Assembly (NCBI GenBank): GCA_013336165.1
Contig: JAAXUF010000009.1
Span: forward strand, 311-64,310
Direction: 5' to 3'
Origin: Coriobacteriia bacterium
Lineage (GTDB): Bacteria; Actinomycetota; Coriobacteriia; Anaerosomatales; JAAXUF01
Length of the DNA stretch: 64,000 nucleotides
Part shown: positions 1-17,477 of the stretch, piece after piece
Position numbering within the stretch: position 1 is the first letter of the stretch
Layout of the letters: each line of letters starts with the position of its first letter
The notes under the pieces: generated by a model
The model's input: only the letters and a program-made list of their open reading frames with translations
What the model was told of the DNA's origin: nothing
Databases searched by the model: none
Position numbers and translations under genes: made by a program

Positions 1-28
1 ACCTTCCGCAGATAGCCTTCCGTATCGT

Positions 29-592
29 ATGCGCGATGACTTTCTCTCTAAGGCGGAGTTGTCGTTCTATCGCGTTCTTCACAATGCGGTCGACGGTCGC
101 GCGGTTATCTGCCCAAAGGTGAACCTGTGTGACGTCTTCTTCGTGGTTCGTCCCAATGAGAACATGGCTGCGCGCGGACGCATCAGCCAGAAGCATGTCG
201 ATTTCCTGCTCTGTGAGTCAGATACGCTGCGTCCAGTGCTCGGCCTGGAGTTGGACGATTCGAGTCATGCTCGGCAGGATCGGCAGCAGCGCGATGAGTT
301 GGTTGACTCGGTGTTTCAAGCAGCGGGACTGCCGTTGCTTCACATTCAGGTTCGATCAAGCTATAGCGTCGGTGAGATCGCGGCCCAACTCGCGCCGTTC
401 CTAAGGGACTCCGGGCGCACTGTGCCAGTTACGCCGCCCGTCGCTGTGTCCTCGGCAGATGGCGCTCCGGTCTGTCCCAAGTGCGGGGTGCAGATGGTGC
501 TTCGAACAGCTGGCCGGGGTGCGCGGCAGGGGGGCCAATTCTACGGGTGTGTCAACTATCCCAAATGCCGCGAAACGGTTCAGCTCGGATGA
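29..592 (+). CDS. DUF2726 domain protein with C-terminal topoisomerase-type C4 zinc finger
   Basis: N-terminal FLSKAELSFYRVL...VDFLLC...LELDDSSH pattern typical of DUF2726. C-terminus CPKCG...FYGCVNYPKC matches the zf-C4 topoisomerase motif. Followed by an attC. Confidence 0.75.
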   Translation: MRDDFLSKAELSFYRVLHNAVDGRAVICPKVNLCDVFFVVRPNENMAARGRISQKHVDFLLCESDTLRPVLGLELDDSSHARQDRQQRDELVDSVFQAAGLPLLHIQVRSSYSVGEIAAQLAPFLRDSGRTVPVTPPVAVSSADGAPVCPKCGVQMVLRTAGRGARQGGQFYGCVNYPKCRETVQLG

Positions 593-609
593 AATGTGTG
601 CGCTGGTGG

Positions 610-695
610 ATCTAACACGTGTTTCGAGCTGACTCGCAGATAGTCGTCGCACTCTGAAAGCGTTACGCTCGCAGCTCAAACACTGGACGTTGGAC
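610..695 (+). repeat. attC site (family A)
   Basis: R''-like ATCTAAC (610-616). Arm GTGTTTCGAGC pairs with GCTCAAACAC leaving one extrahelical C. R' is GTTGGAC (689-695). Lies 18 nt after the stop of the preceding ORF. Confidence 0.7.
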
Positions 696-719
696 AGACC
701 AAACACGAGATTGGGCCAC

Positions 720-1985
720 TTGAGAGTAGCAATCATCGCGCTGGGTAGCCGTGGTGACGTGCAGCCGCACGTTGCGCTCGGGGTGGGACTCAGGCGGGCG
801 GGGCATTCGGTTCGAGTAGTGACTTCCAGCGACTTCGGGGATCTCGTCCGGGCTCACGAACTGGAATTCTGTGACACAGGGGTGAGTACCGAGGCCATCG
901 CCAACGAGATGCATGACCTCCTGGAAGCTGGAAATTTCCTGAAGATCATGACCGCGATGGGTGTTTCGGCAGAACGGGTGGCGGTCCAGGCTGCGACGAA
1001 CGGTCTCGCGGCGTGCAAAGAATCCGACGTAATCTTGAGTGGCCTGGGCGGGCTGTTCGTCGGGCACGCGCTCGCGGAGAAGCTTGGTGTTCCGTTCGTA
1101 CAGGCCTACCTGTATCCGTTCTCGCCAACCCGCGAGTTTCCCGGCGTGCTCACGCCAGTGCCTCAGACACCGCTCACGTCTTGGGCGAACGCTCCGTCAC
1201 ATCGCGCCACCCGGCAGATGCTGTGGCAGACGACTCGATCGGCGGACGCCACCGTCCGGGTGAAGGTCCTGGGTCTCAAGCCGTCGGCCTTCTGGGGTCC
1301 GTTCGGCGAACTGGCTGGCGAGGACCAACTGAGCCTGTACGGATACAGCGAGCATGTGATCCCGGTACCGCATGATTGGCCGCCCCAGAATCATGTCACG
1401 GGCTACTGGTTCCTTGAGCCTTCCTTGGAGTGGCGTCCGCCGACAGAACTGGTTGCCTTCCTTGAGGCGGGTCCGCCGCCGGTGTACGTCGGGTTCGGAA
1501 GCATGGGGAGCAAGAACCCGGAGGCGACGGCGGATCTGGTGCTGGAGTCCCTGCGACGGACCGGGCAGCGCGGCGTTCTCTCTTCCGGATGGGGCGGGCT
1601 AACAAAGAACGATCTCCCCGACTCCGTGTGCATGATAGGTTCAATCCCGCATGCTTGGCTTTTCTCTCGCATGACGGCAATCGTCCATCATGGCGGCGCT
1701 GGAACGACGGCTGCGGCGTTGTCGGCTGGCGTACCTTCGATCGTGACACCCGTGATGGGGGACCAGGCCTTCTGGGCGGGGTGTGTCAGCGGCCTTGGGG
1801 TCGGTCCCAAGGCGGTCCCTCGGCGCAAACTCACCGTCGAACGTCTGAGCCGGGCGATCGAGGCCGCCGTCAGCGATAGCGCGATGCGCGCGAGGTCGGC
1901 GAATCTCGGCGAGCAGATTCGGGCAGAGGACGGGATCACCAAAGCCGTCGACCTGATCGAGCGGCGCTTCGAGACGGCACGGTAA
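720..1985 (+). CDS. GT1-family glycosyltransferase (MGT / sterol-glucosyltransferase-like)
   Basis: N-terminal (M)RVAIIALGSRGDVQP and C-terminal HHGGAGTTAAAL..GVP....P..GDQ..WA nucleotide-sugar signature. The track start at 690 is the attC R' box itself, so the in-frame TTG at 720 is preferred. Confidence 0.85.
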   Translation: MRVAIIALGSRGDVQPHVALGVGLRRAGHSVRVVTSSDFGDLVRAHELEFCDTGVSTEAIANEMHDLLEAGNFLKIMTAMGVSAERVAVQAATNGLAACKESDVILSGLGGLFVGHALAEKLGVPFVQAYLYPFSPTREFPGVLTPVPQTPLTSWANAPSHRATRQMLWQTTRSADATVRVKVLGLKPSAFWGPFGELAGEDQLSLYGYSEHVIPVPHDWPPQNHVTGYWFLEPSLEWRPPTELVAFLEAGPPPVYVGFGSMGSKNPEATADLVLESLRRTGQRGVLSSGWGGLTKNDLPDSVCMIGSIPHAWLFSRMTAIVHHGGAGTTAAALSAGVPSIVTPVMGDQAFWAGCVSGLGVGPKAVPRRKLTVERLSRAIEAAVSDSAMRARSANLGEQIRAEDGITKAVDLIERRFETAR

Positions 1986-1988
1986 GCT

Positions 1989-2044
1989 GTCCAACGGATC
2001 AACCTGACTCGCTACGCTCGCAGGTTATCCGCCCAACGTTAGCT
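1989..2044 (+). repeat. short attC site
   Basis: GTCCAAC (1989-1995). Arm GGATCAACCTG pairs with CAGGTTATCC with one bulged C. Ends in GTTAGCT (2038-2044). 56 bp, starting 3 nt after the stop codon. Confidence 0.55.
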
Positions 2045-2145
2045 CAACCCATGAGCGAGTTCCGGGTTCGGCGTAGCTTTCGTTGTTGGAACCTGTCGCT
2101 GAATGCTACGATTAGGAAATTCGGCCGACTGAAAGGAGGCGACGG

Positions 2146-2220
2146 ATGCATCACATAGGGTCATCGGCGTTCACAGCGCCCATGTATTCGTATGCCTCCA
2201 TTCCGGTGCCCCGCATCTGA
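2146..2220 (+). CDS. Candidate 24-aa leader micro-ORF (MHHIGSSAFTAPMYSYASIPVPRI)
   Basis: Strong SD AAAGGAGG 6 nt upstream of the ATG. The stop codon sits in the loop of a hairpin (GGTGCCCCGC 2205-2214 / GCGGGCACC 2228-2236) just upstream of rsgA. Not in the ORF track because it is under 60 aa. Confidence 0.25.
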   Translation: MHHIGSSAFTAPMYSYASIPVPRI

Positions 2221-2254
2221 CTTGACTGCGGGCACCTCGTCGGAAGGACCCGCG

Positions 2255-3349
2255 ATGCTCAATACCCCTGCGTTGTGTCTCCTCGGCTACTCGCCGCGCT
2301 GGCAGGCGCTATTTGCTCAATTCGACGGCACGGACACATATCCGGCCCGCGTAGTCCGTGCTGATCGAGGAAGCGCGTTGATCGCGTCATCGGACGGCAT
2401 ATGCCGTGCGAAGCCCTCGACCGCTCTAGTGAAAGCTGCTCGCGGCTCTATCGACTTGCCTGTCGTTGGTGACTGGGTTGTAGTTCATGCCCCGCAAGGT
2501 ATCGACGTACCTCTCATCGAGGCAGTATTGGCGCGCACGAGCGCAATCACCAGAGGTGATCCGGGAGAGCCCTCTGTCGCCCAAATCCTCGCTGCCAATG
2601 TCGATACCGTGTTCCTCGTCCATCCCATTGACGCGGGACCCAATCTCCGTCGCATCGAGCGCGAGTTGTCGCTGGTCTGGGATTCGGGAGCCGTTCCTGC
2701 AGTTGTTCTGACCAAGGCCGACGCATCTGCCGCACCCGACGCTGCTCTTGCGGCAGTCCAGGCCGTGGCAATCGGGTGTGAAGTTCTTGTCACAAGTGCC
2801 GTAAGTGGCCTCGGCGTGGACTTGCTGCCCCGCTACGTGGAAGATCGAAAGACGGCGGTGTTGCTGGGGCCTTCTGGGGCGGGCAAGTCGACGCTGACCA
2901 ACGCGCTCCTCGGCGAAGAGCGTCAGGAGACGTGCGGAGTTCGCATGAGCGACCATCGAGGTAGGCACACAACGGTCGTACGCGAGTTGATTCAGCTGCC
3001 CGGTGGGGGCATCCTTATTGATACCCCGGGGTTGCGCGCGCTTGCGTTGACCGGTTCAGAAGTCGGTATCGCCGCAACCTTCCCAGAGATCGAGGAGGAG
3101 GCGCGCTCCTGTCGTTTTCGGGATTGCACTCACAACGACGAGCCGGGCTGCGCAGTTCGGGCTGCCGTTGAGTTGGGCAAACTGCCCGCGAGTCGCTTGG
3201 CGAACTATCACAAGCTGATGCGTGAAGCAGAGGTCGCTGCGATGAAGACCGACTGCCGCCTTCGGGCTGAGGAGGTTCGGAAGTGGAAGGTCATCCAGAA
3301 AGCGGCCAAGGACTTCCACAGGCAAACCGGCAAGCCACCCCAGCGGTGA
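2255..3349 (+). CDS. rsgA: Ribosome small-subunit biogenesis GTPase RsgA (YjeQ)
   Basis: Circularly permuted GTPase order: LTKAD (G4), then GPSGAGKSTL (G1), then DTPG (G3). C-terminal zinc motif CRFRDCTHNDEPGC. Start taken at the internal ATG (MLNTPAL...). Confidence 0.9.
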   Translation: MLNTPALCLLGYSPRWQALFAQFDGTDTYPARVVRADRGSALIASSDGICRAKPSTALVKAARGSIDLPVVGDWVVVHAPQGIDVPLIEAVLARTSAITRGDPGEPSVAQILAANVDTVFLVHPIDAGPNLRRIERELSLVWDSGAVPAVVLTKADASAAPDAALAAVQAVAIGCEVLVTSAVSGLGVDLLPRYVEDRKTAVLLGPSGAGKSTLTNALLGEERQETCGVRMSDHRGRHTTVVRELIQLPGGGILIDTPGLRALALTGSEVGIAATFPEIEEEARSCRFRDCTHNDEPGCAVRAAVELGKLPASRLANYHKLMREAEVAAMKTDCRLRAEEVRKWKVIQKAAKDFHRQTGKPPQR

Positions 3350-3433
3350 GGCCGGCGGACGCTTCGGGCAGGCGACGAAAGAGGTACGATTCCCGAAGCA
3401 CTAGGCTCGCAGCTCAAATGTCAGATGTTAGCC
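3347..3433 (+). repeat. attC site (mixed type)
   Basis: Long imperfect palindrome (GCTTCGGG...CCCGAAGC core). Its right end is homologous to family A (CTCGCAGCTCAAATG) and it ends in GTTAGCC (3427-3433). The rsgA stop TGA is at its left edge. Confidence 0.5.
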
Positions 3434-3453
3434 GTATTGCTGGGAGGTCAGCA

Positions 3454-4092
3454 TTGCTGGGACCGGATCCAAACACCAAGCACCCGATGGCTGGCTTTCC
3501 ACAGGTCTGTTTCATCAAGAACACGGTATCCAGTCCCAACATCCTTATCGGGGACTACACCTACTATGATGACCCTGTGGACTCGGAGGATTTCGAGCGC
3601 AATGTTCTCTACCACTACCCGTTCATGGGCGACAAGCTGATCATCGGCAAGTTCTGCGCCCTGGCTACCGGTGTTCGGTTCATCATGAACGGCGCCAACC
3701 ACAAGTTGAGTGGCCTATCGACATATCCGTTCAGCATCTTCGGCAATGGGTGGGAGCGCGTCACTCCGTCAATGGATGAGTTGCCCGTAAAGGGCGACAC
3801 CGTGATCGGCAATGACGTATGGATCGGATACGAGTCGCTCGTCATGCCCGGCGTGCACATCGGCAACGGTGCGATCGTTGCCGCTCGGTCTGTGATCGTC
3901 TCGGACGTCGAGCCCTACATGATCGTCGGGGGCAATCCCGCTCGGCCCATCCGGCCGCGTTTCTCGCAGGACGTGATTGATGCACTACAGGAGATCGCAT
4001 GGTGGGACTGGGACGTCGCAAGGATCTCGGACAATCTGGAGGCCATTGTCGGCGGCGATATCGACTTGCTTAGAAGTGCGGGAAACGGCTAA
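3454..4092 (+). CDS. Xenobiotic acyltransferase (XAT) family, Vat-type streptogramin A O-acetyltransferase
   Basis: LGPDPNTKHPM...YHYPFMGDKLIIGKFCA...IMNGANH...YPF..FGNGWE...GDT.IGNDVWIG...GGNPA..IR.RF...WW.W matches my recollection of Vat(D)-like proteins end to end. TTG start at 3454 has GGGAGG 6 nt upstream and lies after the attC crossover point. Confidence 0.85.
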   Translation: MLGPDPNTKHPMAGFPQVCFIKNTVSSPNILIGDYTYYDDPVDSEDFERNVLYHYPFMGDKLIIGKFCALATGVRFIMNGANHKLSGLSTYPFSIFGNGWERVTPSMDELPVKGDTVIGNDVWIGYESLVMPGVHIGNGAIVAARSVIVSDVEPYMIVGGNPARPIRPRFSQDVIDALQEIAWWDWDVARISDNLEAIVGGDIDLLRSAGNG

Positions 4093-4170
4093 CAAAGGCA
4101 TCAGCAGAACGCCAAGAAGTAGACTGACCTGAGAGGCTATGCGCGTCTGCTCATGCCTCAGACGTTAGGC
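4087..4170 (+). repeat. attC site (family B)
   Basis: GGCTAAC (contains the vat TAA stop). Arm GGCATCAGCAGAACGC pairs with GCGTCTGCTCATGCC leaving bulges. R' is GTTAGGC (4164-4170). Confidence 0.75.
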
Positions 4171-4258
4171 TGACTGACTCGCAGATGGTCGTCGCTCTCC
4201 GAAAAGCGCTACTCTTTCAAGAGCGGCGCGGCCGCTGCTCAAACGTCAAACGTCAGAC
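4171..4258 (+). repeat. attC remnant (family A/C core and right arm only), abutting the previous attC
   Basis: Begins directly with the TGACTGACTCGCAGATGGTCGTCGC core. It has no left arm and ends GCTCAAACGTCAAACGTCAGAC (degenerate R' GTCAGAC). Confidence 0.5.
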
Positions 4259-4282
4259 CCATCAGCGAGACAAGGGGGTCGG

Positions 4283-4935
4283 GTGCGCGCCATCGTGCGT
4301 TCAGCTGGGAGGCTTCCGGAGGGGACTGCGGATGATCCGCGACTGACGGTTGTTGAGGCCGACCTCCTGTCCCTTAGCGCCGAGGATCTTGTTGAGCACG
4401 TTCGCGGCTGTGATGCAGTCATCTCGTGTCTCGGTCACGTCATCAGCGTCAAGGGAGTGCTTGGTCCACCGTATGATCTAGTCACACGGGCCACGGCGCG
4501 ACTCTGTGAGGCGATTCAAGATTCGCAGCCGGATGCGCCCGTGAAATACATCCTCATGAGCAGCGTCTCAGTCGATCACCCTGACGCGCCCGATGAGCGG
4601 CGCGGCACGATGGAAGAGGTGCTCCTATGGGTTCTCCGCGGGTTGGTCCCTCCGTCAAGGGACAACCAGCGAGCTGCGGGCTTCCTTCATGGCGAGATGG
4701 GGCGAGCAATCCATTCGTGCGGTGGGTCACGGTTCGCCCGGACACTCTCATAGAGGGTGAGGCTTCGGCATACTCGCTTCACGAGAACCTAGTGAGCAGC
4801 CTCTTCAAGCCGGGCAGTACGAACATGGCGAACGTTGCGAGTTTCATGTGCGACCTAGCAACTGATCCTGAATCGTGGGACAGGTGGGAGGGCAGACTGC
4901 CCGTGATCGTCAACGAATCTAGTTCAGAAGGGTGA
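4283..4935 (+). pseudogene. NAD(P)-binding (NmrA/SDR-like) protein, N-terminally truncated and frameshifted
   Basis: Two overlapping frames (4283-4753 and 4627-4935) read as one protein, with a shift near 4700 (...FLHGEMG / NPFVRWVTVRPDTLIEG...). The Rossmann GxxGxxG N-terminus is missing. Confidence 0.6.
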
Positions 4936-4949
4936 CAATGAGGGCGTAA

Positions 4950-5037
4950 GTTCAAGTAAACGTTTCGAGCAGACTCGCAGATAGCGTTCGTGCTCTGAAA
5001 GCGCTACGCGCGCTGGCTCAAACGTTAGACGTTGGGC
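4950..5037 (+). repeat. attC site (family A)
   Basis: GTTCAAG..AACGTTTCGAGC pairs with GCTCAAACGTT leaving an extrahelical C. Shares the ACTCGCAGATAGCGTTCG core. R' is GTTGGGC (5031-5037). Confidence 0.7.
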
Positions 5038-5058
5038 AGACACACTGAGGGGGCGCCC

Positions 5059-5505
5059 ATGAAGCGTTACGATTGGCTCCGGCTGGTTCTGTGCGGTCTC
5101 GTGGCCGGTGCGGTCTGGAATCTGAGCTCGGCGGTGCTCCTTGCGGTCCTTGCACCTGACTTCGTGCCCTTGATGCAAGGGAGCGCACCCTATCCTGCAT
5201 TTGGTGGCGAGGTCTTCTATGTCGTCGATCTTACTATGGGGATATGGGCGGTCTGGCTATTCTCGGCAATCACCCCTCGGTATGGAGCGGGACCGGTGAC
5301 TGCGGCCATCGTCGGTGTCGCTTGGTGGCTCTTGGCTACTCTCCAGAGCGTCAAGTGGGTAGCACTGGGGTTCGCTGAGCTCGGAGCGGACGTTCTTCTG
5401 CTGGGGGCTTTGACGTTGGGCGCAGCGATTCTCGCGTCAGCGGCAGGCGCATGGCTCTACCGCAGAGCGTCCAAGCCATCGCCGCAACGCCCTTCAGCGA
5501 CGTAG
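5059..5505 (+). CDS. Hypothetical integral membrane protein
   Basis: About four hydrophobic helices. ATG has GAGGGGG 5 nt upstream and lies after the attC crossover. Confidence 0.55.
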   Translation: MKRYDWLRLVLCGLVAGAVWNLSSAVLLAVLAPDFVPLMQGSAPYPAFGGEVFYVVDLTMGIWAVWLFSAITPRYGAGPVTAAIVGVAWWLLATLQSVKWVALGFAELGADVLLLGALTLGAAILASAAGAWLYRRASKPSPQRPSAT

Positions 5506-5723
5506 GGGGCAGAGTCGCTATCATCCCGGTCGCCCGGCGTGATGTGGATCGCCATGATTGACGTGGCAAGCGCTTGGGCCGCTGCCCCGGCAAGTCTTCC
5601 AGCTGACGCGCTAGGCGGTGGCGTATCCTGCAAGTTGAGTGGCGCGCAGCTGAAGCGCCACTTGGACAGACGGTGGAGTGCCCCTCGCCTGCGGGGAGAC
5701 CGAATCGCACTTGGGAGGTTTAC

Positions 5724-6335
5724 GTGTTCACTGCGCAATTCCTGCTGACTGCACTCGTGGTTGTGCTGATCCCGGGTACAGGAGCGCTCTACACGATCTC
5801 GACCGGGATTGCCCGCGGCTCACGCGTTGGGGTGGCTGCTGCTTTCGGGTGCACGATCGGGATCGTGCCGCATCTTCTGGCGAGCGCTTTGGGGCTCTCG
5901 GCGATCATAAACATGGGAGCTCAGGTCTTCTCGGGAGTCAAGCTTGCCGGGGCTTGCTACCTGCTCTATCTGGCATGGCAGACGTGGAAAGAAGCAGGCC
6001 GGTTCTCAGCTCAAGGGGATACCGTTGAGCGCGGGCTGGCAGAAGTGGCGTGGCGGGGTGTGGCACTTAATCTCCTCAACCCCAAGCTCACCATCTTCTT
6101 TCTCGCGTTCCTGCCCAACTTCATCACTCCCGGCTCATCGGCGATGCAGCAGCTGGCGGGGTTGAGTGCGGTGTTTATGGTCATGACGTTTGTCGTCTTT
6201 TCCCTCTACGCCGTCATTGCGAGTGCGGCGCGCTTGATCTTCAGCGGGACTTCGCAAGCGATGCGCTGGCTCCAGCGGTCATTCGCTGTCGTGTTCGCCG
6301 GTTTGGCCGTGGAGTTGGCCTTGAGCGATCGGTGA
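5724..6335 (+). CDS. LysE/RhtB-family amino-acid exporter
   Basis: N-terminal FLLTALVVVLIPGTGALY motif and a six-helix pattern typical of the LysE family. GTG start with GGGAGG upstream. Confidence 0.8.
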   Translation: MFTAQFLLTALVVVLIPGTGALYTISTGIARGSRVGVAAAFGCTIGIVPHLLASALGLSAIINMGAQVFSGVKLAGACYLLYLAWQTWKEAGRFSAQGDTVERGLAEVAWRGVALNLLNPKLTIFFLAFLPNFITPGSSAMQQLAGLSAVFMVMTFVVFSLYAVIASAARLIFSGTSQAMRWLQRSFAVVFAGLAVELALSDR

Positions 6336-6354
6336 TGAGGTTGGACGGTCTTGA

Positions 6355-6462
6355 CTCTAACAAACGTTTCGAGTTGACTCGCAGAAGGTTTGCGCCTTCT
6401 GAGAGCGCTAGCGCTACTCTGATGACTGTGCATCGCCGCCGCTGATGCCTCAGACGCTGGGC
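6355..6462 (+). repeat. Chimeric attC site (family A left half, family B right arm)
   Basis: Left half CTCTAACAAACGTTTCGAGTTGACTCGCAGAAGG. Right arm GCCGCTGATGCCTCAGACGCTGGGC, with R' GCTGGGC at 6456-6462. Confidence 0.6.
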
Positions 6463-6547
6463 AGACGAGGGCGGGGCCGGAGTGGCTGGCGCATTTGGGT
6501 GTTCCTGTCAGACAGCGCCTTGTCGCTTGAGTAGGGGGTTGGCATTC

Positions 6548-7084
6548 GTGAAGTACGTCGCGTTGCTGCGCGGGATCAATGTCGGCAAGGGTGCTCGCGT
6601 GCCCATGAAGACCCTGCAGGTTCTTTTCGAGGGTCTCGGGCTTCGCGACGTTGTCACTTACTTGAACTCGGGCAATGTAGTATTCAGCTCATCTCTGAGT
6701 GCCCTTGATCTTGCGTGTGTGCTCGAAGACGAGCTTGAGCGAGCGTTCGGCGCGAAGATCCCGACTCTGGTGAAGACGTCGGCGGATGTGATCGCGATAG
6801 CGGACTCGATACCGAGCGAGTGGGGAAACGGCGAGGGCGAACAGACCTATGTCGCGTATCTGTTCAGTGATGTCGACAAGCCGGATCTCATGTCGGAGCT
6901 GCCGGTCAGAATGGAGTACTTGACTATCTTCTACACGCCCGGGGCCATCGTCTGGAACATCAAGCGAGAGAACTACAATCGCAGCCACATCACCAGAATC
7001 GCGGGACACAGCTCCTACTCTCGGATGACCACGAGGAACGTCAACACGGCGAGGAAGCTCGCGGCGCTTTGCGCTGAGTCCTGA
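6548..7084 (+). CDS. DUF1697 family protein
   Basis: VKYVALLRGINVGKGARVPMKTL...TYLNSGNVVF is the characteristic DUF1697 N-terminus. GTG start with GGGGG upstream. Confidence 0.8.
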   Translation: MKYVALLRGINVGKGARVPMKTLQVLFEGLGLRDVVTYLNSGNVVFSSSLSALDLACVLEDELERAFGAKIPTLVKTSADVIAIADSIPSEWGNGEGEQTYVAYLFSDVDKPDLMSELPVRMEYLTIFYTPGAIVWNIKRENYNRSHITRIAGHSSYSRMTTRNVNTARKLAALCAES

Positions 7085-7100
7085 CGGCGGTGTCGCTGCC

Positions 7101-7179
7101 TGACAACGTTTCGAGCAGACGGCGAAGGGGTACCCTTTCGAGAGCAACACGCCTGCCGCTCAAACGTCAGACGTTGGGC
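7101..7179 (+). repeat. attC site (family A/C)
   Basis: TGACAAC, then CGTTTCGAGCAGACGGCG pairing with CGCCTGCCGCTCAAACG with bulges. R' is GTTGGGC (7173-7179). Confidence 0.7.
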
Positions 7180-10530: not shown

Positions 10531-10578
10531 ACTGACCTAGGAGCGTGAGCGCGTCTGCCCATGCCCTAGGCGTTACTC
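10498..10578 (+). repeat. attC site (family B, left end uncertain)
   Basis: GGGCAGACTCGC pairs with GCGTCTGCCC. Shares the GTAGACTGACCTAGGAG core. Ends CATGCCCTAGGCGTTACTC (R' GTTACTC 10572-10578). Confidence 0.55.
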
Positions 10579-10607
10579 CGGAACCAGCAGCACGATGGGG
10601 AGGGCTT

Positions 10608-11246
10608 GTGAGGTTTCGTGTGGGTCCCGTTCCGGATGACCCCGGCTTCTGTCCTGAAGTGGGCGGCTGGACTAGGCTGAAAGAGCCGTCACTCGGCTGG
10701 CTGATGGTACTCTCGATACCGCTCGCGGTGGGGATTGCCGCAAGCCTTCTGTTCACGTGGAGCCTCATCGGCCAGATGCACGGTGCGACAGGCGAGGTCA
10801 GTTTCGCCATCACCACCGGCGGGGCTCTTGCGGCTCTCCTTGCGCTCTTGGCCATGGTCGTCGCGCACGAGTTTCTTCACGTTCTCTCGCTGCCGCAATT
10901 CGGCCTTGGCCCTGCCACCACGCTCGGATTCTGGCCGCAGGCGTTCACGCCGTATGTGTCCTATGAAGGTGAACTGTCGCGAGGTCGGCAGATCGTGGTC
11001 GGGGTCGCACCGTTTCTCATCCTGTCGGTCGTCCCACTGCTCGCCGGACTCATCTTCGGCGTTGCGCCGCCGCTCGTAGTCGTGCTCGGTGCGCTCAACG
11101 GATTTGGGTCATCGGCCGATCTCATCGGTGCGGCTATGGTCGCATTTCGGGTGCCTGCTTGCGGTCGCATTCGCAGTAGAGGCGATGAAACGTGGTGGCG
11201 CTCCTGGGACGAGTGTCTGCGTGAGAGGGGAACGCATGCACGATGA
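10608..11246 (+). CDS. DUF3267 (putative zincin-like membrane peptidase)
   Basis: HEFLHVLSLP motif flanked by transmembrane helices. GTG start with GGGGAGGG upstream. Confidence 0.65.
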   Translation: MRFRVGPVPDDPGFCPEVGGWTRLKEPSLGWLMVLSIPLAVGIAASLLFTWSLIGQMHGATGEVSFAITTGGALAALLALLAMVVAHEFLHVLSLPQFGLGPATTLGFWPQAFTPYVSYEGELSRGRQIVVGVAPFLILSVVPLLAGLIFGVAPPLVVVLGALNGFGSSADLIGAAMVAFRVPACGRIRSRGDETWWRSWDECLRERGTHAR

Positions 11247-11760
11247 TGGAGTACGACCGAAGCGCGTGGTCGTAAGAGATCTCATGCAGCAAGGCTATGA
11301 ATACCTGCTGCTTGAGCCGCAGGGCAAGGGGTTCGACCCGCGTTTTGAACCCGAACTCACTCCGCAGGAAATGCTGCGCCTCGGTGTGTTCGGCGGCAGA
11401 TATCTCACTGATTGTCGCGACGAGTTCCCCGACTCCTGGTATGAGGGCGCCAAGCTCTGCCACGATCGACACGACCCGGGCCTCAACTTCTTCGGCGTCA
11501 ACGCCAGCCTGCCGCTTGCCGAGTGGCAGCGCCGCGGATGGATCTACCCCGAAGATCCGAGGGGCTGGTTTCAGTGGTATTGTCGGTACTGGATGGGTCG
11601 CAGGCTACCGTACCAAGACCTGCGGCAGATTGGGCGATGGCGCGCGTTTCGTCGGCACGCAGGTCAGGTGCGCGCGCATTGTCTGCCCGGGGACGACAGC
11701 TGTCGTCCGAAGCAGCGCCAAACCCTGTTGAACTGGGCGTATGATAGCCGTCTGCTGTAG
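11236..11760 (+). CDS. Conserved hypothetical protein (Trp/Arg-rich; WFQWYCRYWMGRR motif)
   Basis: Good coding character. ATG overlaps the previous gene by 11 nt. I recognise it as a conserved family but cannot name it. Confidence 0.6.
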   Translation: MHDDGVRPKRVVVRDLMQQGYEYLLLEPQGKGFDPRFEPELTPQEMLRLGVFGGRYLTDCRDEFPDSWYEGAKLCHDRHDPGLNFFGVNASLPLAEWQRRGWIYPEDPRGWFQWYCRYWMGRRLPYQDLRQIGRWRAFRRHAGQVRAHCLPGDDSCRPKQRQTLLNWAYDSRLL

Positions 11761-11761
11761 C

Positions 11762-11822
11762 AGGCATGACAAAGGCATTGAGCAAGACGCCATGAGGCCG
11801 GACCTGCCGGCATGACGAGGAG
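11762..11822 (+). repeat. attC left half only (family B), right arm and R' missing
   Basis: GCATGACAAAGGCATTGAGCAAGACGCCATGAGG matches family B left arms. No complementary arm or GTT box before the next ATG (11828). Confidence 0.35.
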
Positions 11823-11827
11823 ACGAC

Positions 11828-12733
11828 ATGCGGATCGAGGATCTGAGGCGCTACATCAAGAACACCGAGAAGATGGTGGTCCCGACCAAAGTCGCATCGA
11901 CAATGCAGGGCATCGGCATGCTCCGCCGACTACCTCTGGGACTTCAGCGCTACATAGTCAATAGGGGAGCGCGAACCAACCCGTACATGAGTTTCGTCGT
12001 TGAGCCGTATGGCGTCTTCTTGGCGTTTGAGATCGTTGATACCGATGCGGCCACACGGCTCTTGCCGCCGGGTTACAGCCTGTTTCCGTCGGCGATGTTC
12101 GGCAATACCGCGAAGCGGCCATGCGCGATCATCAGCGCCTTCAACGTTCACACGAGCGTCTTCTGGGGGAGTCGCGTGGAGTTCTACCTGATCGCGGAGA
12201 ATTGCAGGACCGGACTCCTCTCTTGGATCATTGATGAGTACGAGAGCAACGCGCCCAGCTACGACCCGAGCCGGGGCTTCATCGACCCGAGCACGTCCCA
12301 TTCTGTGGTCACCACGTCATATCGGGGTGAGGTCATCGTTGATGTTGTGAGCGCGCAGTCCGCCAACAGTCTTGCCCTCGTCGCTGACCTGAACAACAGT
12401 GTGCTCGCCGAACTCGATCAGCGCCTGTGGGTCGAGGGCAATCTGTCGGTCGACTACGGCGGTGAGCTGCAACAGTGTACCAAGCCCTTCAGCTTGGTGT
12501 TCGACCCGAATGAGATGACTCAGGCGCTGAAGCTTCCGCTCGATGGTATCTCGCTGTGCACCAACACCTTCGGCGCCGGCCTGCTGGACACGACGCCGTT
12601 CGAGGCGGCGTGCTTCCCCTATGCGCAGCACTTCATCACAACCGGCGTCCCGACTGCCACCTCGATGCGGACGGCCGAGGATCTTGAGCAGGCCGTGACT
12701 GAGCTCAATGACCAGCTGAGCGTCCCGCACTAG
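11828..12733 (+). CDS. Hypothetical protein (301 aa)
   Basis: Long ORF with RBS GAGGAG upstream. No family recognised with confidence. Confidence 0.6.
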   Translation: MRIEDLRRYIKNTEKMVVPTKVASTMQGIGMLRRLPLGLQRYIVNRGARTNPYMSFVVEPYGVFLAFEIVDTDAATRLLPPGYSLFPSAMFGNTAKRPCAIISAFNVHTSVFWGSRVEFYLIAENCRTGLLSWIIDEYESNAPSYDPSRGFIDPSTSHSVVTTSYRGEVIVDVVSAQSANSLALVADLNNSVLAELDQRLWVEGNLSVDYGGELQQCTKPFSLVFDPNEMTQALKLPLDGISLCTNTFGAGLLDTTPFEAACFPYAQHFITTGVPTATSMRTAEDLEQAVTELNDQLSVPH

Positions 12734-12819
12734 CTGGTGGACTACCGCGACGCGGCAGTCTGGTCCATGTCGGTTCGGAGGCCGCGCGCCGGACCAACAG
12801 AACGTCGAGGGAGGCTCCG

Positions 12820-13380
12820 ATGGCCAAGTTGATTTTCTCGATGGTTGAGTCACTCGATGGCTACGTCGCGGATCCAGCAGGCAAGTTTGACTGGGCTGAG
12901 CCGGATGAGGCGGTGCACACGTTCATCAACGAACTTGAGCGCCCGGTCGGCACCTATCTGTTCGGCCGTCGGATGTACGAGGTAATGGTCGTGTGGGAGA
13001 CCTTAGACGGGCTTGCTGATCAGCCGTCGTTCATCAAGGAATTCGCTAAGATCTGGCGGGCCGCCGACAAGATTGTCTACTCGTCAACGCTTGACTCCGT
13101 GTCTAGCGCGCGAACGAGGATCGAGCGGGATTTCGACCCTGCTGCGATCCGGCGAATGAAAGAGGAAGTCGTGGGCGACATCTCTGTGGGTGGGCCCGGT
13201 ATCGCTGCCCAGGCAATACGTGCCGGCTTGGTGGACGAGTACCAGCTGTTCGTTGCGCCGGTCATTGTTGGAGGTGGCATTCGGTCGCTCCCTGACGGGG
13301 TTCGACTCAAACTCGAGCTTGTGGATGAGCGTCGCTTCGATAACGGCATGGTATATATGCACTATCGTCCCGCCACCTGA
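12820..13380 (+). CDS. Dihydrofolate-reductase-like (RibD C-terminal domain) family protein
   Basis: MAKLIFSMVESLDGYVADP.GKFDW.......F...L....TYLFGRRMYE is typical of the RibD_C/DHFR-like family. RBS GAGGGAGG. Confidence 0.8.
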   Translation: MAKLIFSMVESLDGYVADPAGKFDWAEPDEAVHTFINELERPVGTYLFGRRMYEVMVVWETLDGLADQPSFIKEFAKIWRAADKIVYSSTLDSVSSARTRIERDFDPAAIRRMKEEVVGDISVGGPGIAAQAIRAGLVDEYQLFVAPVIVGGGIRSLPDGVRLKLELVDERRFDNGMVYMHYRPAT

Positions 13381-13393
13381 CGATACGTTAGGT
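13375..13393 (+). repeat. Minimal attC-like junction (R''/R' boxes without arms)
   Basis: ACCTGAC-gatac-GTTAGGT. The two 7-mers are near reverse complements, and the stop TGA of the preceding gene is inside the left box, as in full sites. Confidence 0.3.
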
Positions 13394-13432
13394 CGGACGT
13401 GTGCTTGTCCATCGCATGAATCGAGGGCTTTC

Positions 13433-13912
13433 ATGTCGGACGCTTCAGCCACATGGTTCCGATCCAAGATCGACTGGTGGATCGGACTGATCCTTGTAGT
13501 GTTGCCATTCATCGAACTTGGAGGTCTGGCCGCTGCCCTACTGGCTGGCGACCGTGAAGCGGCCACTGCGATGGCAATGGGCAGCGGGCTTGTCGCGGCG
13601 ATCTACGGCCTGCTGTTGATCCCGATCCGTTACGGGATCACGGAAGATAGACTGATCATCCGCTTCGGCGTCGTCCGAAGGAGTATCCCACTGAGTGATA
13701 TTCGCGAGGTTCATCCGACACGCAATCCTTTGGCTTCTCCTGCGCTGTCGCTGGACAGGCTCGCGATTCGAGTCGATGAGGGCTTCATTGGGATGAGCCT
13801 CGTTTCGCCTTCAGAGCGTGAGGAGTTCCTGTCGTTGCTTGCGAGCAGCGCGGGGCTCTCACGCGAAGGCAATCGACTGGTGCGTATCAGGGACAGTATG
13901 CCGTCGGCCTGA
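13433..13912 (+). CDS. Bacterial PH-domain membrane protein (YdbS/DUF304-like)
   Basis: Two N-terminal transmembrane helices followed by YGITEDRLIIRFGVVRRSIPLSDI.....NP. The track ORF start at 13190 overlaps the previous gene and is rejected. Confidence 0.65.
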   Translation: MSDASATWFRSKIDWWIGLILVVLPFIELGGLAAALLAGDREAATAMAMGSGLVAAIYGLLLIPIRYGITEDRLIIRFGVVRRSIPLSDIREVHPTRNPLASPALSLDRLAIRVDEGFIGMSLVSPSEREEFLSLLASSAGLSREGNRLVRIRDSMPSA

Positions 13913-13990
13913 CAAGGCATCGAGCAGAACGTCGGAAGTAGACCGGCCTGAAGGCGTGTGAGCGTCTGCTCATGCGCAACACTTTAGGAC
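13908..13990 (+). repeat. attC site (family B)
   Basis: GCCTGAC (contains the TGA stop), then AAGGCATCGAGCAGAACGTC pairing with GAGCGTCTGCTCATGC. R' is the degenerate TTTAGGA (13984-13990). Confidence 0.6.
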
Positions 13991-14193
13991 GACGACGGGA
14001 GCCAGCCTTCACGAGACCGAGCCACTCGCGTACCATCGCTTTGGCTGCTTGAGTGCCCAGTGCCGCGCTAGTTAGGAGTCCGAATGCAGTCTGCTCGTTT
14101 CCGACGACACAGAGACCCCGATGGCAAGGGGTTGAACATCATTCCGTCGGCCCACCACAGCGCGTCTGTCCGTGTCTTCGTTTTGGAGACGGC

Positions 14194-15465
14194 ATGAAGA
14201 CTCGCAGCGATGGCTGGCTCCGCACGGTCCTTATCATCTTCACCGGGCAGACCTTCTCCCTTCTGGGGAGTTCCGCGGTCAATTTCGCACTCGTGTGGTG
14301 GCTGACCGCCGAGACCGGCTCCGCAGCACTCCTTGCTTACGCTTCAATAGCAGCAATACTGCCGCAGGCCGTTCTCGGGCCGATCGCCGGCCCCTTCATC
14401 GATCGATGGGATCGACGATTCACGATGATCGTCGCCGATCTGATGATCGCGGCAACAAGTGTTTGGCTTCTGCTCGCGTTCGCGGAAGGTGCGCCCTCGG
14501 TGACGCTTATCATGCTCGTCATCGCGCTTCGATCCGCGGGCGCGGCGTTTCACACTCCGGCGAGCCAAGCGGCGGTTCCCATGTATGTGCCGGCGGACCA
14601 GCTGATGCGAGTCGCTGGATGGAGCTTCTTCATGAGCTCCGGTGTAGCGATGGCGGGACCTGTCCTGGGGGCATTCATGATGGCGGCCACGTCGATCTCG
14701 GCGGTCATGGCTGTCGACATCGTTGGGGCCGGGATCGCCGTCGCATCGCTCCTGATAGTCCGCATCCCCAATCCCCAGAGAGACGAGAGTGAATCAGGGC
14801 GCATCGACTTCGTCGCCGAGTTCGTCGACGGCTGGCGGGAGCTGATCCGACACCGAGGGCTACTGGATCTGACGCTCGTGCTCGCGATGGTCACGCTCCT
14901 GTATATGCCGCTCAACGCGCTGTTTCCGCTGATGACGTTCTCGCACTTCAGCGGTGATGCGGCCGCTGCGAGCTACGTTGAGGTGGCGTTCGGTGCGGGT
15001 ATGCTCGTTGGGTCGATGATGATCGGCGTGATGTCGCGGCGCTTCTCAGGCGTGCAGCTTGTCGGCGCAGGCATCCTTCTCGTGGGCGGAATGCTTGCCG
15101 TCTCGGGCATGCTGCCGTCATCCGCGTTCTGGGTCTTCGTGATGATGTGCGTGCTGATGGGGTTTTCGGTTCCGCTCTTCGGCGCTCCGATCACCGCCAT
15201 GTTCCAGGGACTCATCGATCCAGCGAAGCTGGGGCGTGTGATGTCGCTCTATATGACGATCGCGATGCTTGCGGCACCAGTAGGGTTGTTGGTCGCAGGC
15301 CCGCTGGCAGAACAGGTTGGCGTGGCTCCGTGGTTCGCGATCTCGGGCGTGCTTATAGCGGTGATGGGGCTCGTAGCTTGGTCACTCCCGGCCGTTCGCG
15401 CACTCGATGCGGCCACGGGCCTTGCGACTGCCGGCCCTGCCGCTATCGAGGAACGGGCGTTCTGA
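14194..15465 (+). CDS. MFS transporter
   Basis: About 12 hydrophobic helices and the GPIAGPFIDRWDRR loop motif typical of the enterobactin-exporter-like MFS_3 group. Internal ATG chosen as start. Confidence 0.8.
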   Translation: MKTRSDGWLRTVLIIFTGQTFSLLGSSAVNFALVWWLTAETGSAALLAYASIAAILPQAVLGPIAGPFIDRWDRRFTMIVADLMIAATSVWLLLAFAEGAPSVTLIMLVIALRSAGAAFHTPASQAAVPMYVPADQLMRVAGWSFFMSSGVAMAGPVLGAFMMAATSISAVMAVDIVGAGIAVASLLIVRIPNPQRDESESGRIDFVAEFVDGWRELIRHRGLLDLTLVLAMVTLLYMPLNALFPLMTFSHFSGDAAAASYVEVAFGAGMLVGSMMIGVMSRRFSGVQLVGAGILLVGGMLAVSGMLPSSAFWVFVMMCVLMGFSVPLFGAPITAMFQGLIDPAKLGRVMSLYMTIAMLAAPVGLLVAGPLAEQVGVAPWFAISGVLIAVMGLVAWSLPAVRALDAATGLATAGPAAIEERAF

Positions 15466-15499
15466 CCATGGCATGGAGCAAGCTCGCAGGAGGATAACG

Positions 15500-16009
15500 G
15501 TGGGTACACTCGACAGCGATCTGAGTGAGTTGCGCGATTACCTCGGCGAGGGCTCGATCCAGAGGGCCTATGCGGCGATCGTCGGGTATATGGCACGGCT
15601 CCGAACGCACTTCGCGAGCAGTCAAGGTGAGCGGGCGGTTTCGAGTCTGTACCAGGGCTACTTCGACATGACCTACTTCGCGCTGTTCCCGCCCGCCCTC
15701 AAGTCTCGTGACCTTAAACTCGCAATCGTGTTCGACTACGAGTCGTTCGGGTTCGAGGTGTGGCTTGCCGCGCGCAATCGCAAGGTACAGCGGGAGTACT
15801 GGGAGCTGTTCAGAGGAAGCAGCTGGCCCGACTACCGTGTCGTCGAACCCGCCGCCGGCGTCGACGCGATCGTCGAGTACAACGTTGCATGCGGGTTCGC
15901 ACTTGATGATTCCGAAGCACTCACCGCGCGGATTGAGGATGCGGTGGTGGCTCTTCTCGGCGATATCGAGCAGTTCCTTGCGATTCACGACCCGCGCCAA
16001 GCGGGCTGA
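15500..16009 (+). CDS. Hypothetical protein (169 aa), probably co-transcribed with the MFS gene
   Basis: GTG start with AGGAGG 6 nt upstream, only 34 nt after the MFS stop. No family recognised. Confidence 0.55.
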   Translation: MGTLDSDLSELRDYLGEGSIQRAYAAIVGYMARLRTHFASSQGERAVSSLYQGYFDMTYFALFPPALKSRDLKLAIVFDYESFGFEVWLAARNRKVQREYWELFRGSSWPDYRVVEPAAGVDAIVEYNVACGFALDDSEALTARIEDAVVALLGDIEQFLAIHDPRQAG

Positions 16010-16088
16010 CGAGCGTTTCGCGCAGAGCGCCAAGAGGTAGACTGACCGGAGAGGTTATGCGCGTCTACTCGGACCTCAGATGTTGGCA
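16004..16088 (+). repeat. attC site (family B)
   Basis: GGCTGAC (contains the TGA stop). Core GCGCCAAGAGGTAGACTGACCGGAGAGG is identical to other B sites. R' is GTTGGCA (16082-16088). Confidence 0.7.
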
Positions 16089-16132
16089 TGTACCGCGGCC
16101 GAGAGGATCAACGAGCGGTGGGCGGGAGAATC

Positions 16133-16888
16133 GTGGGTAAGCGTGTCACGGCCATTGGCGGCGTGGCAGTCGAGTATGCCGTTGCTGGCAGCGGCACGCC
16201 CGCCATCGTTCTGCTCAACGGCGCCGGAGGCCCGTTGGAGGGATGGGTTCGAGTCCTTGCGCCGCTCGAGGCTGTCAGCACCGTCGTAGCCTACAATCGT
16301 CTCGGCATCGGTCGAAGCAGTAAGCCCTCGGAGCCGCAGACCGGAGACGTCGTGGTCCGCACGCTCCACGCGCTGCTCGAGGGGCTGGGCCTGCGTCCGC
16401 CTTACGTTCTCGTAGGTCACTCCCTTGGAGGACTGTACGTCAACCTGTTCGCTCGCACGTATCCGCTGGAGGTCGCTGCCGTCGTCTTCCTGGATTCCGC
16501 GGCACCCGAGGACTCCACGCTGGTCGATGAGTACAGCACCAGCCTTCAGCGTCTCGCGCAACGAGTGGCGGATGCGGTGTTCGGGCGAGACGAGTTCGGC
16601 GAGGCAGCATGCGTTCCGAAGACCGTGGACATAATCGCGCGCGCGAACGCCTTCCCGCCGGTGCCAGTCGTGGTCGTCAGCGCAGGCAGACCCGCTCGAG
16701 GCATTCCTCCTGCTGTCCGCGCTGCGCGTGCTCGGAATCAAGAGGGGCTGGTTGCTCTTTCGCCATTGGGTCAACACTTGATAGCCGGTAAGAGCGGGCA
16801 CTTCCCACAGATCAGCGAACCAGGCCTCGTAAGCGAGACGATTCGATCGGTGGTGGCTTCGGTCAGAGAGAGCGTGCAGGAGTCTTGA
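16133..16888 (+). CDS. Alpha/beta-fold hydrolase
   Basis: Nucleophile elbow GHSLGG and an N-terminal LLNGAGG oxyanion region. GTG start with GGGAGA upstream. Confidence 0.8.
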   Translation: MGKRVTAIGGVAVEYAVAGSGTPAIVLLNGAGGPLEGWVRVLAPLEAVSTVVAYNRLGIGRSSKPSEPQTGDVVVRTLHALLEGLGLRPPYVLVGHSLGGLYVNLFARTYPLEVAAVVFLDSAAPEDSTLVDEYSTSLQRLAQRVADAVFGRDEFGEAACVPKTVDIIARANAFPPVPVVVVSAGRPARGIPPAVRAARARNQEGLVALSPLGQHLIAGKSGHFPQISEPGLVSETIRSVVASVRESVQES

Positions 16889-16916
16889 GAGGATTCATCG
16901 AAAGAGAGGAGGCGAC

Positions 16917-17288
16917 ATGAGGGCTCGAAGCCTGTGGTCTCGCATCCTTGTCGTCGTTGGTGGGATCGGGATGCTCCTCGGCGCGGTCGATCCGCTCGAG
17001 GGTTCGGTGGTCATTCTCGTCGGCAGCGCGATGGTGCTGCTCGGGATACTCCTCGGTCAGGAGGAGCGCCGCGTGCTGCTCTACTGGGCTGCCGTCTTCG
17101 CTCTCATCGCTTTGGGCGTGGCGGCCATGGTTGCCCTGAGCGCCGTCGGTGGCATCGGGGGGACGAGTGGACATTCGATGTGGTGGGGTGTCTTGGTCCT
17201 GCCCTATCCCGTTGGCTGGATCATGGGCATGGCGAGTCTGCTGTTCAGGCTGGTCAGGAGCGCTCGTCACCGCCACGCGGCCACCTGA
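16917..17288 (+). CDS. Hypothetical membrane protein (4 TM)
   Basis: RBS GAGGAGG upstream of the ATG. Strongly hydrophobic. Confidence 0.55.
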   Translation: MRARSLWSRILVVVGGIGMLLGAVDPLEGSVVILVGSAMVLLGILLGQEERRVLLYWAAVFALIALGVAAMVALSAVGGIGGTSGHSMWWGVLVLPYPVGWIMGMASLLFRLVRSARHRHAAT

Positions 17289-17375
17289 TACCGCCGTGTT
17301 TCATGCATCAGATGCAGAAGGACGATCGAGCTAGGCTTCGCAGGCAGGTTCCGGATACGACAGGCTTGCGCTGAC

Positions 17376-17477
17376 TGCTAACCTGCACGTCCGGCAGACA
17401 ACACGCCGCGAGAGCGGTAACCTTTGTCGCAGGCGCATGCAGTGGCGTATTGAAACTGACGCGCAAAGACGTCAGGC
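17376..17477 (+). repeat. Candidate terminal or degenerate attC
   Basis: Left box TGCTAAC is identical to the one at 8864. Right box GTCAGGC (17471-17477) lies 19 nt before the GNAT start. Arm pairing is weak. Confidence 0.3.

Follow-up and report, generated by a model that had tools for sequence, protein, structure and literature searches.

Whether the left end of a 64,000-nucleotide stretch of a Coriobacteriia genome (NCBI GenBank assembly GCA_013336165.1, contig JAAXUF010000009.1, positions 311 to 64,310; hereafter the window) carries an integron, and in what state, is the question raised by this locus. A first-pass annotation made from the sequence had described this end as an array of short, unrelated, co-oriented genes, almost each of them followed by an imperfect palindrome with the architecture of an integron attC site. 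The first ~18 kb is a real integron-type gene-cassette array: the attC reading is supported by covariance-model matches and their restriction in strand and position, by covarying hairpins, by the placement of the sites relative to genes, by the absence of the array from relatives, and by a homologue of one cassette gene in a different array. We further consider it very probable that positions 1 to ~18,060 represent the distal part of a chromosomal array of integron-type cassettes, now eroding, and that the genome is that of an environmental, nif-bearing, Coriobacteriia-like member of Actinomycetota.

The sites were searched for with a covariance model (R1) built from the 11 attC sites of L003 only, an array in an unrelated metagenome-assembled genome (MAG), with search filters off. 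RNAalifold applied to these 11 sites yielded the R''/R' and L''/L' helices, with compensatory changes in 11 of 21 pairs. As positive controls, the attC sites of aadA1 (R100) and dfrA1 were taken from PLSDB; R1 recovered the former exactly at 4001-4060 (35.9 bits) and the latter at 21.2 bits, and on 734 kb of unrelated metagenome loci it returned two matches, one of which is a real array. Searching the whole window gave 18 matches at E<0.1, scoring 17-58 bits, all on the plus strand and all within 610-17477, and a search of positions 1-18100 gave 16 at the same threshold. The covariance-model check that the first-pass annotation had proposed, carried out here with R1 and not with IntegronFinder, is therefore positive. 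In the remaining 46 kb of the window R1 found nothing at E<0.5 (best E=0.57), and the syntenic loci of two relatives (L086 and L087) gave no significant match. No Rfam family matches the array at its gathering score. A strict regular expression (RYYYAAC...GTTRRRY) was set aside as too strict, retrieving one true site only (610-695).

The sites are 60-108 nt long and fall into two related types. Type A has the pattern GTTTCGAGC...GACTCGCAGATA...GCTCAAAC, which in detail reads ...AAC-N4-GTTT-C-GAGC...GACTCGCAGATA...GCTCAAAC-N7-GTTGGRC, and type B has the pattern GGCATCGAGCAGAACGCCAAGARGTARACTGACC...TCTGCTCATGCC, in detail GGCTAAC-AAA-GGCAT-C-GAGCAGAACGCCAAGARGTARACTGACC...TCTGCTCATGCC-TCAGAC-GTTAGGC. 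The cores of types A and B each occur four times, against 0.02 and 0.17 occurrences by chance, and the direct-repeat families D1-D8 were found solely within 600-16100. The individual sites and remnants are as follows.

610..695, plus strand: type A attC, intact, R'' ATCTAAC, R' GTTGGAC, bulged C (58.1 bits, E 2e-12); hairpin on both strands, helix pairs 5/5, 6/6 and 8/10
1985..2044, plus strand: short attC, intact, R'' GTCCAAC at 1989-1995, R' GTTAGCT (26.5 bits, E 2e-4); hairpin
3350..3433, plus strand: attC-like, degenerate R'' GGCGGAC, R' GTTAGCC (17.8 bits, E 0.008-0.036)
4087..4170, plus strand: type B attC, intact, GGCTAAC / GTTAGGC (51.3 bits)
4172..4258, plus strand: truncated attC, left arm missing, R' GTCAGAC with GTT lost (16.8 bits); helix 2 pairs 0/6
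4951..5037, plus strand: type A attC, degenerate R'' TTCAAGT, R' GTTGGGC (34.1 bits); bottom strand forms a hairpin
5596..5672, plus strand: partial degenerate attC, R'-like box CTTGGAC (25.2 bits; model positions 13-65 only)
6355..6462, plus strand: chimeric attC, type A left and type B right arm, R' GCTGGGC with GTT lost (24.1 bits); pairs 4/6 and 5/10, minimum-energy fold without hairpin
7098..7179, plus strand: type A attC, GCCTGAC / GTTGGGC (44.0 bits); bottom-strand hairpin of -16.8 kcal/mol
7678..7754, plus strand: type A attC remnant from local alignment, R' GTTGGGC at 7748-7754, left arm degenerate
8864..8946, plus strand: chimeric attC, type A left and type B right arm, R' ATTAGGC with GTT lost (29.5 bits); helix 2 pairs 3/6
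9358..9442, plus strand: type-B-like attC, CGTCGAC / GTTGGGC (32.4 bits)
9637..9720, plus strand: type B attC, R' GCTGGGG with GTT lost (28.3 bits); hairpin on both strands
10201..10285, plus strand: type B attC, degenerate R'' GCCCAGC, R' GTTAGAT (41.1 bits); overlaps the 3' end of the DUF3795 gene
10494..10578, plus strand: weak type-B attC-like site in or after a truncated 83-aa open reading frame (ORF), R' GTTACTC (13.3 bits, E 0.5); families D1/D2
11763..11800, plus strand: left half of a type B attC only (local alignment z=5.8, 0/200 shuffles)
13907..13989, plus strand: type B attC, GCCTGAC / TTTAGGA with GTT lost (32.8 bits); stop codon of the bPH_4 gene in R''
16004..16088, plus strand: type B attC, GGCTGAC / GTTGGCA, weak L helix (23.5 bits); six G.T wobbles
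17426..17477, plus strand: weak last attC-like match, R' GTCAGGC (18.2 bits, E 0.006-0.03)

The remnant at 7678..7754 was not detected by the covariance model; its local alignment with the site at 610-695 scores 80, against 18±2.3 for shuffled sequences (z=27). The intact type B site at 4087..4170 is close in sequence to the attC at L003:5056-5141, the sole real match to the 20-nt type B core among GTDB genome contigs, where the scan returned L003 plus one chance match only. Its R'' box contains the stop codon of the preceding acetyltransferase gene, and the embedding of stop codons in R'' that the first-pass annotation had noticed was confirmed here and at 13907 and 16004.

The R''-L''...L'-R' hairpin with an extrahelical base, likewise proposed at first reading, is well supported. 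When the 16 window sites were aligned under the guidance of the model, 88.3% of cells formed pairs, whereas sliding the 3' partners lowered this to 28-37%; compensatory changes are seen in 16 of 21 pairs, and none of 500 shuffles reaches any of the observed pairing measures, with the proviso that an alignment fitted to the model favours such a result. The L''/L' arms of 9637..9720, for example, show compensatory changes relative to 4087-4170. In 14 of the 16 sites one unpaired C (column 16) separates the two L'' sub-helices; it aligns with the C of GTT-C-AAGCC in the aadA1 attC, which corresponds to the extrahelical G of the recombinogenic bottom strand; the bulge in CGTTT-C-GAGC against GCTCAAACG was found as described at 610, 4951 and 7098. 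The R''/R' boxes are in register in nearly all sites, central loops measure 4-50 nt, the distance from stop codon to site is -42 to +90 nt where a site follows a gene, and the largest site-to-site spacing is ~2.1 kb. Folding as DNA, the check suggested for the bottom strands, gave clean hairpins for seven sites (610, 1985, 4087, 4951, 7098, 9637 and 10494) and none for six (6355, 7655, 8864, 9358, 13907 and 16004). R'' is often TGAC, paired to GTTG or GTTA, with the mismatches on the recombinogenic bottom strand. The attC helices contain 36 top-strand G.T wobbles versus 11 A.C mismatches, in an RNA-model alignment that favours G.U; this excess could point to a relaxation of selection, or to the sense strand or the RNA being under selection.

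Two arrangements of sites depart from the pattern of one site per gene. At 4087-4258 two attC-like sites stand back to back, one base apart and with no gene between them, an intact type B followed by a type A without its left arm; the double site may be an emptied or collapsed cassette. The chimeric sites at 6355-6462 and 8864-8946 join a type A left arm (GTTTCGAG) to a type B right arm (GCTSATGCC), the GTT is lost in both, and their L helix cannot form. A deletion between adjacent attC sites of different types would yield such chimeras.

The cassette-array region extends over window positions 1..18060 on the plus strand, its left limit being the end of the window and contig and its right limit a conserved core gene at 18067-18507 on the minus strand. 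The left edge to ~17.5 kb given by the first-pass annotation holds as an array, with covariance-model sites at 610-17477, and its right end does not, the region running on to ~18,060. From 1 to ~18,060 there are 22 short ORFs, all on the plus strand except 8401-8796. Consistent with the initial description of short, unrelated, co-oriented genes, Pfam gives the families listed, which are mutually unrelated, and five genes have no family. The genes below were assigned by Pfam unless stated otherwise.

29..592, plus strand: DUF2726 with a topoisomerase-type zinc ribbon
720..1985, plus strand: GT1 glycosyltransferase
2255..3349, plus strand: RsgA-like GTPase; exact protein also on Logan contig L001
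3454..4092, plus strand: hexapeptide-repeat acetyltransferase; gene call on L001
4283..4935, plus strand: NAD_binding_10 cassette pseudogene, 5' truncated and frameshifted (two ORFs)
5059..5505, plus strand: small membrane protein (ORF; no Pfam family above cut-off)
5724..6335, plus strand: LysE translocator
6548..7084, plus strand: DUF1697
7777..8259, plus strand: AhpC/TSA peroxiredoxin
8401..8796, minus strand: the sole reverse-strand gene, no family (ORF, gene call on L090; no Pfam or PADLOC match)
9064..9309, plus strand: DUF2164
9761..10237, plus strand: DUF3795
10608..11246, plus strand: DUF3267 (putative zincin)
11236..11760, plus strand: gene without family (ORF; no Pfam match)
11828..12733, plus strand: gene without family, 301 aa (ORF; no Pfam or PADLOC match)
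12820..13380, plus strand: RibD_C (DHFR-like)
13433..13912, plus strand: bacterial PH domain (bPH_4); gene call on L091
14194..15465, plus strand: MFS transporter; gene call on L091
15500..16009, plus strand: DUF7000
16118..16888, plus strand: alpha/beta hydrolase
16917..17288, plus strand: small membrane protein (ORF)
17496..18017, plus strand: GNAT acetyltransferase, last gene of the inserted region; not at the syntenic position in L086 and L087

In the pseudogene at 4283..4935, NAD_binding_10 profile positions 23-106 and 136-184 are matched in two different reading frames. The reverse-strand gene at 8401..8796 is assigned to one cassette with the peroxiredoxin gene because no attC lies between the two. 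Two tiny ORFs occupy 7271-7475, between the attC at 7098-7179 and the remnant at 7678-7754, and one of them (7361-7468) codes for a zinc-finger peptide of the DnaJ type (CxxCxGxG). They may be what is left of a cassette, or a cassette for a micro-protein. PADLOC recognized no known defence system among ten cassette proteins. The closest metagenome relative of the DUF2726 product of 29..592 (61% identity) sits in a different attC array, at 1039-4590 of L014, a 4.6-kb sediment-metagenome contig with a canonical array of four GTCTAAC...GTTAGAC sites. Apart from this homologue with different neighbours, nothing hints that any gene of the window array has been mobile as a cassette; the metagenome scan with DUF2726 returned relatives of at most 61% identity, and 78 of 80 loci were without attC.

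To the right of 18,060 the window contains RNase R, an M42 peptidase, tmRNA, RecQ, nifHDK-EN-B, catalase, a tRNA cluster and trigger factor. RNase R has its best relatives, at 76-81% identity, among the proteins of MAGs that carry the label Coriobacteriia bacterium. Contigs of those MAGs (L086 and L087) show the order ftsE-ftsX-ctpA-(tetR)-small minus-strand gene-rnr-...-M42-smpB, without attC. Because their small minus-strand gene is the orthologue of window 18,067-18,507 (70% identity) and follows ftsEX-ctpA, everything left of ~18,060 represents an insertion relative to them, the GNAT gene included. A Geobacter-like host, which nifEN and NifA had suggested, was rejected on the RNase R matches and the gene order. 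An array of about 19 sites of the two types lies in a chromosomal context and is absent from the two nearest relatives at hand (~80% RNase R identity). GC skew is positive over the whole window, which assigns the bottom strands of attC to the template of the leading strand; the same orientation was reported for 25 of 30 sedentary chromosomal integrons (PMC5371416).

An intI gene near the array, whose absence, together with a lack of cassette variation between strains, the first-pass annotation had counted as evidence against an integron, was not found: tblastn with IntI1 from R100 against all six frames of the 64-kb window returned nothing below E=1.5, and so the window encodes no tyrosine recombinase of any kind. 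The parent contig measures 65,960 bp and extends at most 1.96 kb beyond the window; its end truncates the array. With no integrase in the 64 kb and so little contig beyond it, 'integron' can be read here only as a cassette array or CALIN, a cluster of attC sites with no integrase nearby, as defined for IntegronFinder (Cury 2016, PMC4889954; Néron 2022, PMC9024848). Operationally the array is a CALIN: at least two attC sites lie within 4 kb of each other with no intI nearby, at a contig edge. An intI adjoining the array, as in a complete integron, is not present within the window, the left end being cut by the contig end, and judged from sequence a complete or active integron cannot be claimed.

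Logan contigs of run SRR11449212 are 100% identical to the window and break inside the attC sites at 610-695, 4087-4170 and 9637-9720, and breaks of this kind inside attC repeats offer an explanation for the break in the assembly. As only identical contigs of the same run were found, there is no second strain for comparison. Exact-protein look-ups with 29-592, 59-592, 720-1985 and RNase R returned nothing, or short Logan contigs of the same sample only, and an exact 40-mer of the left edge of the window is absent from metagenome contigs. By the steps of established integron biology, from which the build-up is inferred, each unit would consist of a gene lacking a promoter and an attC of 60-108 nt, and would have entered as a circular cassette through the action of the integron integrase, which would recombine the folded attC bottom strand at G|TT of R' with attI. 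Older cassettes would be displaced away from the integrase, so that integrase and attI would lie beyond the window's left edge. If it resembles that of two related arrays (L088 and L089), the integrase gene would share the orientation of the cassettes, and it may be truncated.

L003 is part of a 346-kb soil-MAG contig and holds a textbook array on the minus strand, in which small genes, including PIN, HigBA and MazEF-type toxin-antitoxin genes, are each followed by a GCCTAAC...GTTAGGC hairpin. The contig of L003, L088 (CAVQNN010000001.1, with the label uncultured Actinomycetes bacterium), has a same-strand intI remnant (9535-9815) ~200 bp ahead of the start of the 11-site array. The remnant corresponds to IntI1 residues ~228-330 at 55% identity, contains an in-frame stop and a frameshift, and directly abuts an unrelated SRPBCC (Polyketide_cyc2) gene. 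On L089 a 132-aa ORF at 2548-2946 matches IntI1 residues 212-330 at 61% identity, including the IntI-specific ALDRKYP...WQWVFPQ, and is followed by three co-oriented canonical attC sites, with no N-terminal part upstream. The N-terminal two-thirds of intI are gone in both, and both are integrons of inverted (co-oriented) layout with decapitated integrases. The 120 best word-index matches to the IntI C-terminal fragment were all 79-133 aa long; the idea of a special mini-integrase family was dropped, an exhaustive IntI search having placed full-length proteins (at least 300 aa) among the best 150. Among the short matches, several show a scrambled N-terminus or else lack an internal segment, so that ...TEQxYxQWV runs into FPQENRWKN, and the short matches are attributed mostly to fragmentary metagenome genes and pseudogenes.

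The array is probably undergoing erosion. The expectation that sites end in GTT holds for ten of 16 and fails in the rest, the triplet having become GCT at 6355 and 9637, ATT at 8864, TTT at 13907 and GTC at 4172 and 17426; the site at 5596 is partial and has no aligned R' box. The AAC of R'' is kept in five sites only, and both triplets are kept only at 610, 1985 and 4087 (3/16). In the comparator arrays both are kept in 8/11 sites of L003, 4/4 of L014 and 3/3 of L089, as well as in both class 1 controls, and the difference between 3/16 and 12/15 (L003 and L014 only) is significant (Fisher test, p=0.001). The initial impression that almost every gene is followed by a site stands up to ~10.6 kb and not beyond. 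Seven junctions are without a detectable site (8260, 11246, 12733, 13380, 15465, 16888 and 18017, with nothing better than shuffled sequence), and remnants picked by eye at 12733, 13380, 15465, 16888 and 18017 were dropped for the same reason. A model match is present at 14 of ~15 junctions up to 10.3 kb versus four of ~11 beyond, and beyond 10.6 kb, in the distal 7.5 kb, attC is missing from most junctions, a gradient that would fit the oldest, distal cassettes decaying first. Given the lost triplets, the chimeras, the pseudogene and the missing distal attC sites, many cassettes are probably frozen into the chromosome.

An alternative that we regard as unlikely, but the most serious of those considered, is that the window shows the distal part of a sedentary chromosomal integron that is complete and active, with intI, attI and the cassette promoter (Pc) beyond the left contig end or on another contig and with the degenerate sites being tolerated variation. 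The contig is short (65,960 bp) with the array reaching its edge, contigs assembled from the short reads of this sample end within attC repeats, and draft assemblies inflate CALIN counts, as the IntegronFinder authors note (PMC9024848); moreover, ten sites have GTT, several fold well, and the replication orientation is that of large stable sedentary integrons (PMC5371416). This reading is at odds with the loss of GTT in six sites, with the chimeric and half sites, the pseudogenized cassette and the attC-free junctions, and with the truncated intI in the only two related arrays that have a readable upstream end. In addition, no complete integron had been found in complete actinobacterial genomes as of 2022, the IntegronFinder 2.0 survey having recorded for Actinobacteria one In0 (integrase without cassettes) and few CALINs (PMC9024848).

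Several points weigh against the eroding chromosomal array that we prefer. The window has no integrase and the attI/Pc end lies outside it, so the term integron stands on the attC sites and no other component. All exact protein matches come from the same sample (SRR11449212) in the same order, and cassette mobility is not demonstrated here. R1 is a home-made stand-in for the attc_4 model of IntegronFinder, though validated, and the host assignment uses one marker (RNase R) plus synteny. The erosion comparison draws on a small reference set that is partly the training set of R1, GAC variants of R'' also occur in the healthy-looking L003 array (2/11), and, judging from sequence, some of the 'degenerate' sites may still work.

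That the 18-kb block is a genomic island brought by another mobile element (an integrative and conjugative element, a phage or a tmRNA-targeting integrase), with incidental palindromes, appears highly improbable. The block is an insertion relative to the relatives and lies 4.5 kb from a tmRNA gene, a classical island target, but neither the block nor the rest of the window yielded, with Pfam and tblastn, a gene for an integrase, a transposase, conjugation or a phage; conserved rnr, M42 peptidase and other genes separate the block from the tmRNA gene; IMG/VR contains no match to the attC core motifs; and the GC content of the block is close to that of the core. The tmRNA gene itself (22584-22934, tag GTNKYALAA) has no adjoining integrase or island boundary.

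The least probable reading of all, a family of intergenic palindromes of the kind of repetitive extragenic palindromes and miniature inverted-repeat transposable elements, or of terminators, with no relation to integrons, would account for related intergenic palindromes and for the 36 G.T versus 11 A.C pairs that an RNA-level hairpin would show, but that bias was measured on an RNA-model alignment favouring G.U pairs, the hairpins are not followed by a run of T, the R''/R' boxes fall in the register of attC and so does the extrahelical base, a model from the array of another genome finds both window and clinical attC sites, and, where the first-pass annotation had named genome-wide scatter regardless of gene orientation as the mark of such a family, the repeats form one 18-kb block in a single orientation with none in window positions 18-64 kb or at the loci of L086 and L087. 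Within these data, the dispersed-repeat alternative raised at first reading is excluded.

The flank of the array also encodes a complete-looking nitrogenase cluster (26976-39762) in this genome with a Coriobacteriia-like RNase R and synteny, comprising nifH (26976-27899), nifD (27904-29361), nifK (29372-30883), a fused nifEN (30894-33542), nifB (35000-35971) and a NifA-like sigma-54-type activator (38005-39762, minus strand). A pair of repeats spaced ~410 bp apart, at 34216 and 34626, lies between nifEN and nifB, and we assume that these might be candidate PII-like nifI genes. Five tRNA genes (Gly, Arg, His, Lys and Leu) and then trigger factor are located within 61326-63573. The trigger factor gene contains 26-nt GAAGA-rich tandem repeats at 63392-63525, which presumably encode an acidic/lysine-rich stretch near the C-terminus.

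The element is of a known kind in an unusual host, and the mechanism is not new. Like other CALINs, the array has at least two co-oriented attC sites less than 4 kb apart with no intI within reach in the window, and its mutated core triplets and half sites suggest that it too is a degraded integron, as has been proposed for CALINs. It differs from the average CALIN (about six attC) in having 16-19 sites over 18 kb, and, as the contig stops within the array, the label may be an artefact of assembly. In Xanthomonas, the integrases of sedentary integrons are often inactivated and the arrays are under genetic erosion (discussed in Loot 2017, PMC5371416). Like these, the window array is chromosomal and medium-sized, its attC sites resemble one another and it shows decay; it differs in that its host belongs to Actinomycetota, not Gammaproteobacteria, and no integrase is in view. 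The five integrons reported in the opposite orientation are all from Xanthomonas (PMC5371416); unlike in those, the attC bottom strands of the window apparently lie on the leading-strand template.

Similar to the Vibrio cholerae repeat (VCR) arrays of Vibrio, the window array has mutually similar attC sites (in two families), the same replication orientation, and short, promoterless-looking, co-oriented cassettes of diverse or unknown functions, but it is far smaller, many of its sites are degenerate, no integrase is seen and no toxin-antitoxin cassettes were recognized. The arrays of L088 and L089 share its cassette style and attC architecture, and the model trained on L003 scores window sites at up to 58 bits. 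Different from the window, their core triplets are nearly all intact, and they contain several toxin-antitoxin cassettes and a 5'-truncated intI directly upstream. A later review lists Actinobacteriota among the phyla with detected integrons (PMC8618304), and our literature search found no paper linking integrons with Coriobacteriia.

The array is located on one contig with the core genes rnr, ssrA, nifHDK and tig, which find their nearest relatives in Coriobacteriia MAGs. With its 18 kb and about 19 sites, it adds substantially to the evidence that integron cassettes reach Actinomycetota. The attC type common to the window and to the arrays of Danish soil MAGs with truncated, co-oriented intI hints at a common, possibly dying, integron lineage in Actinomycetota of soil and sediment. 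Somewhat short of an even chance, we tentatively propose that environmental Coriobacteriia and other Actinomycetota own, or recently owned, 'inverted' sedentary integrons with co-oriented intI, of which the window would be one in the course of fossilizing: its integrase would be lost or truncated, its attC triplets mutating, neighbouring attC sites fusing into chimeras, and the MFS, RibD_C, alpha/beta hydrolase and GNAT cassettes becoming fixed chromosomal genes. The graded decay of the sites, from intact through mutated GTT, chimeric and half sites to none, provides a natural series for the domestication of cassettes into chromosomal genes.

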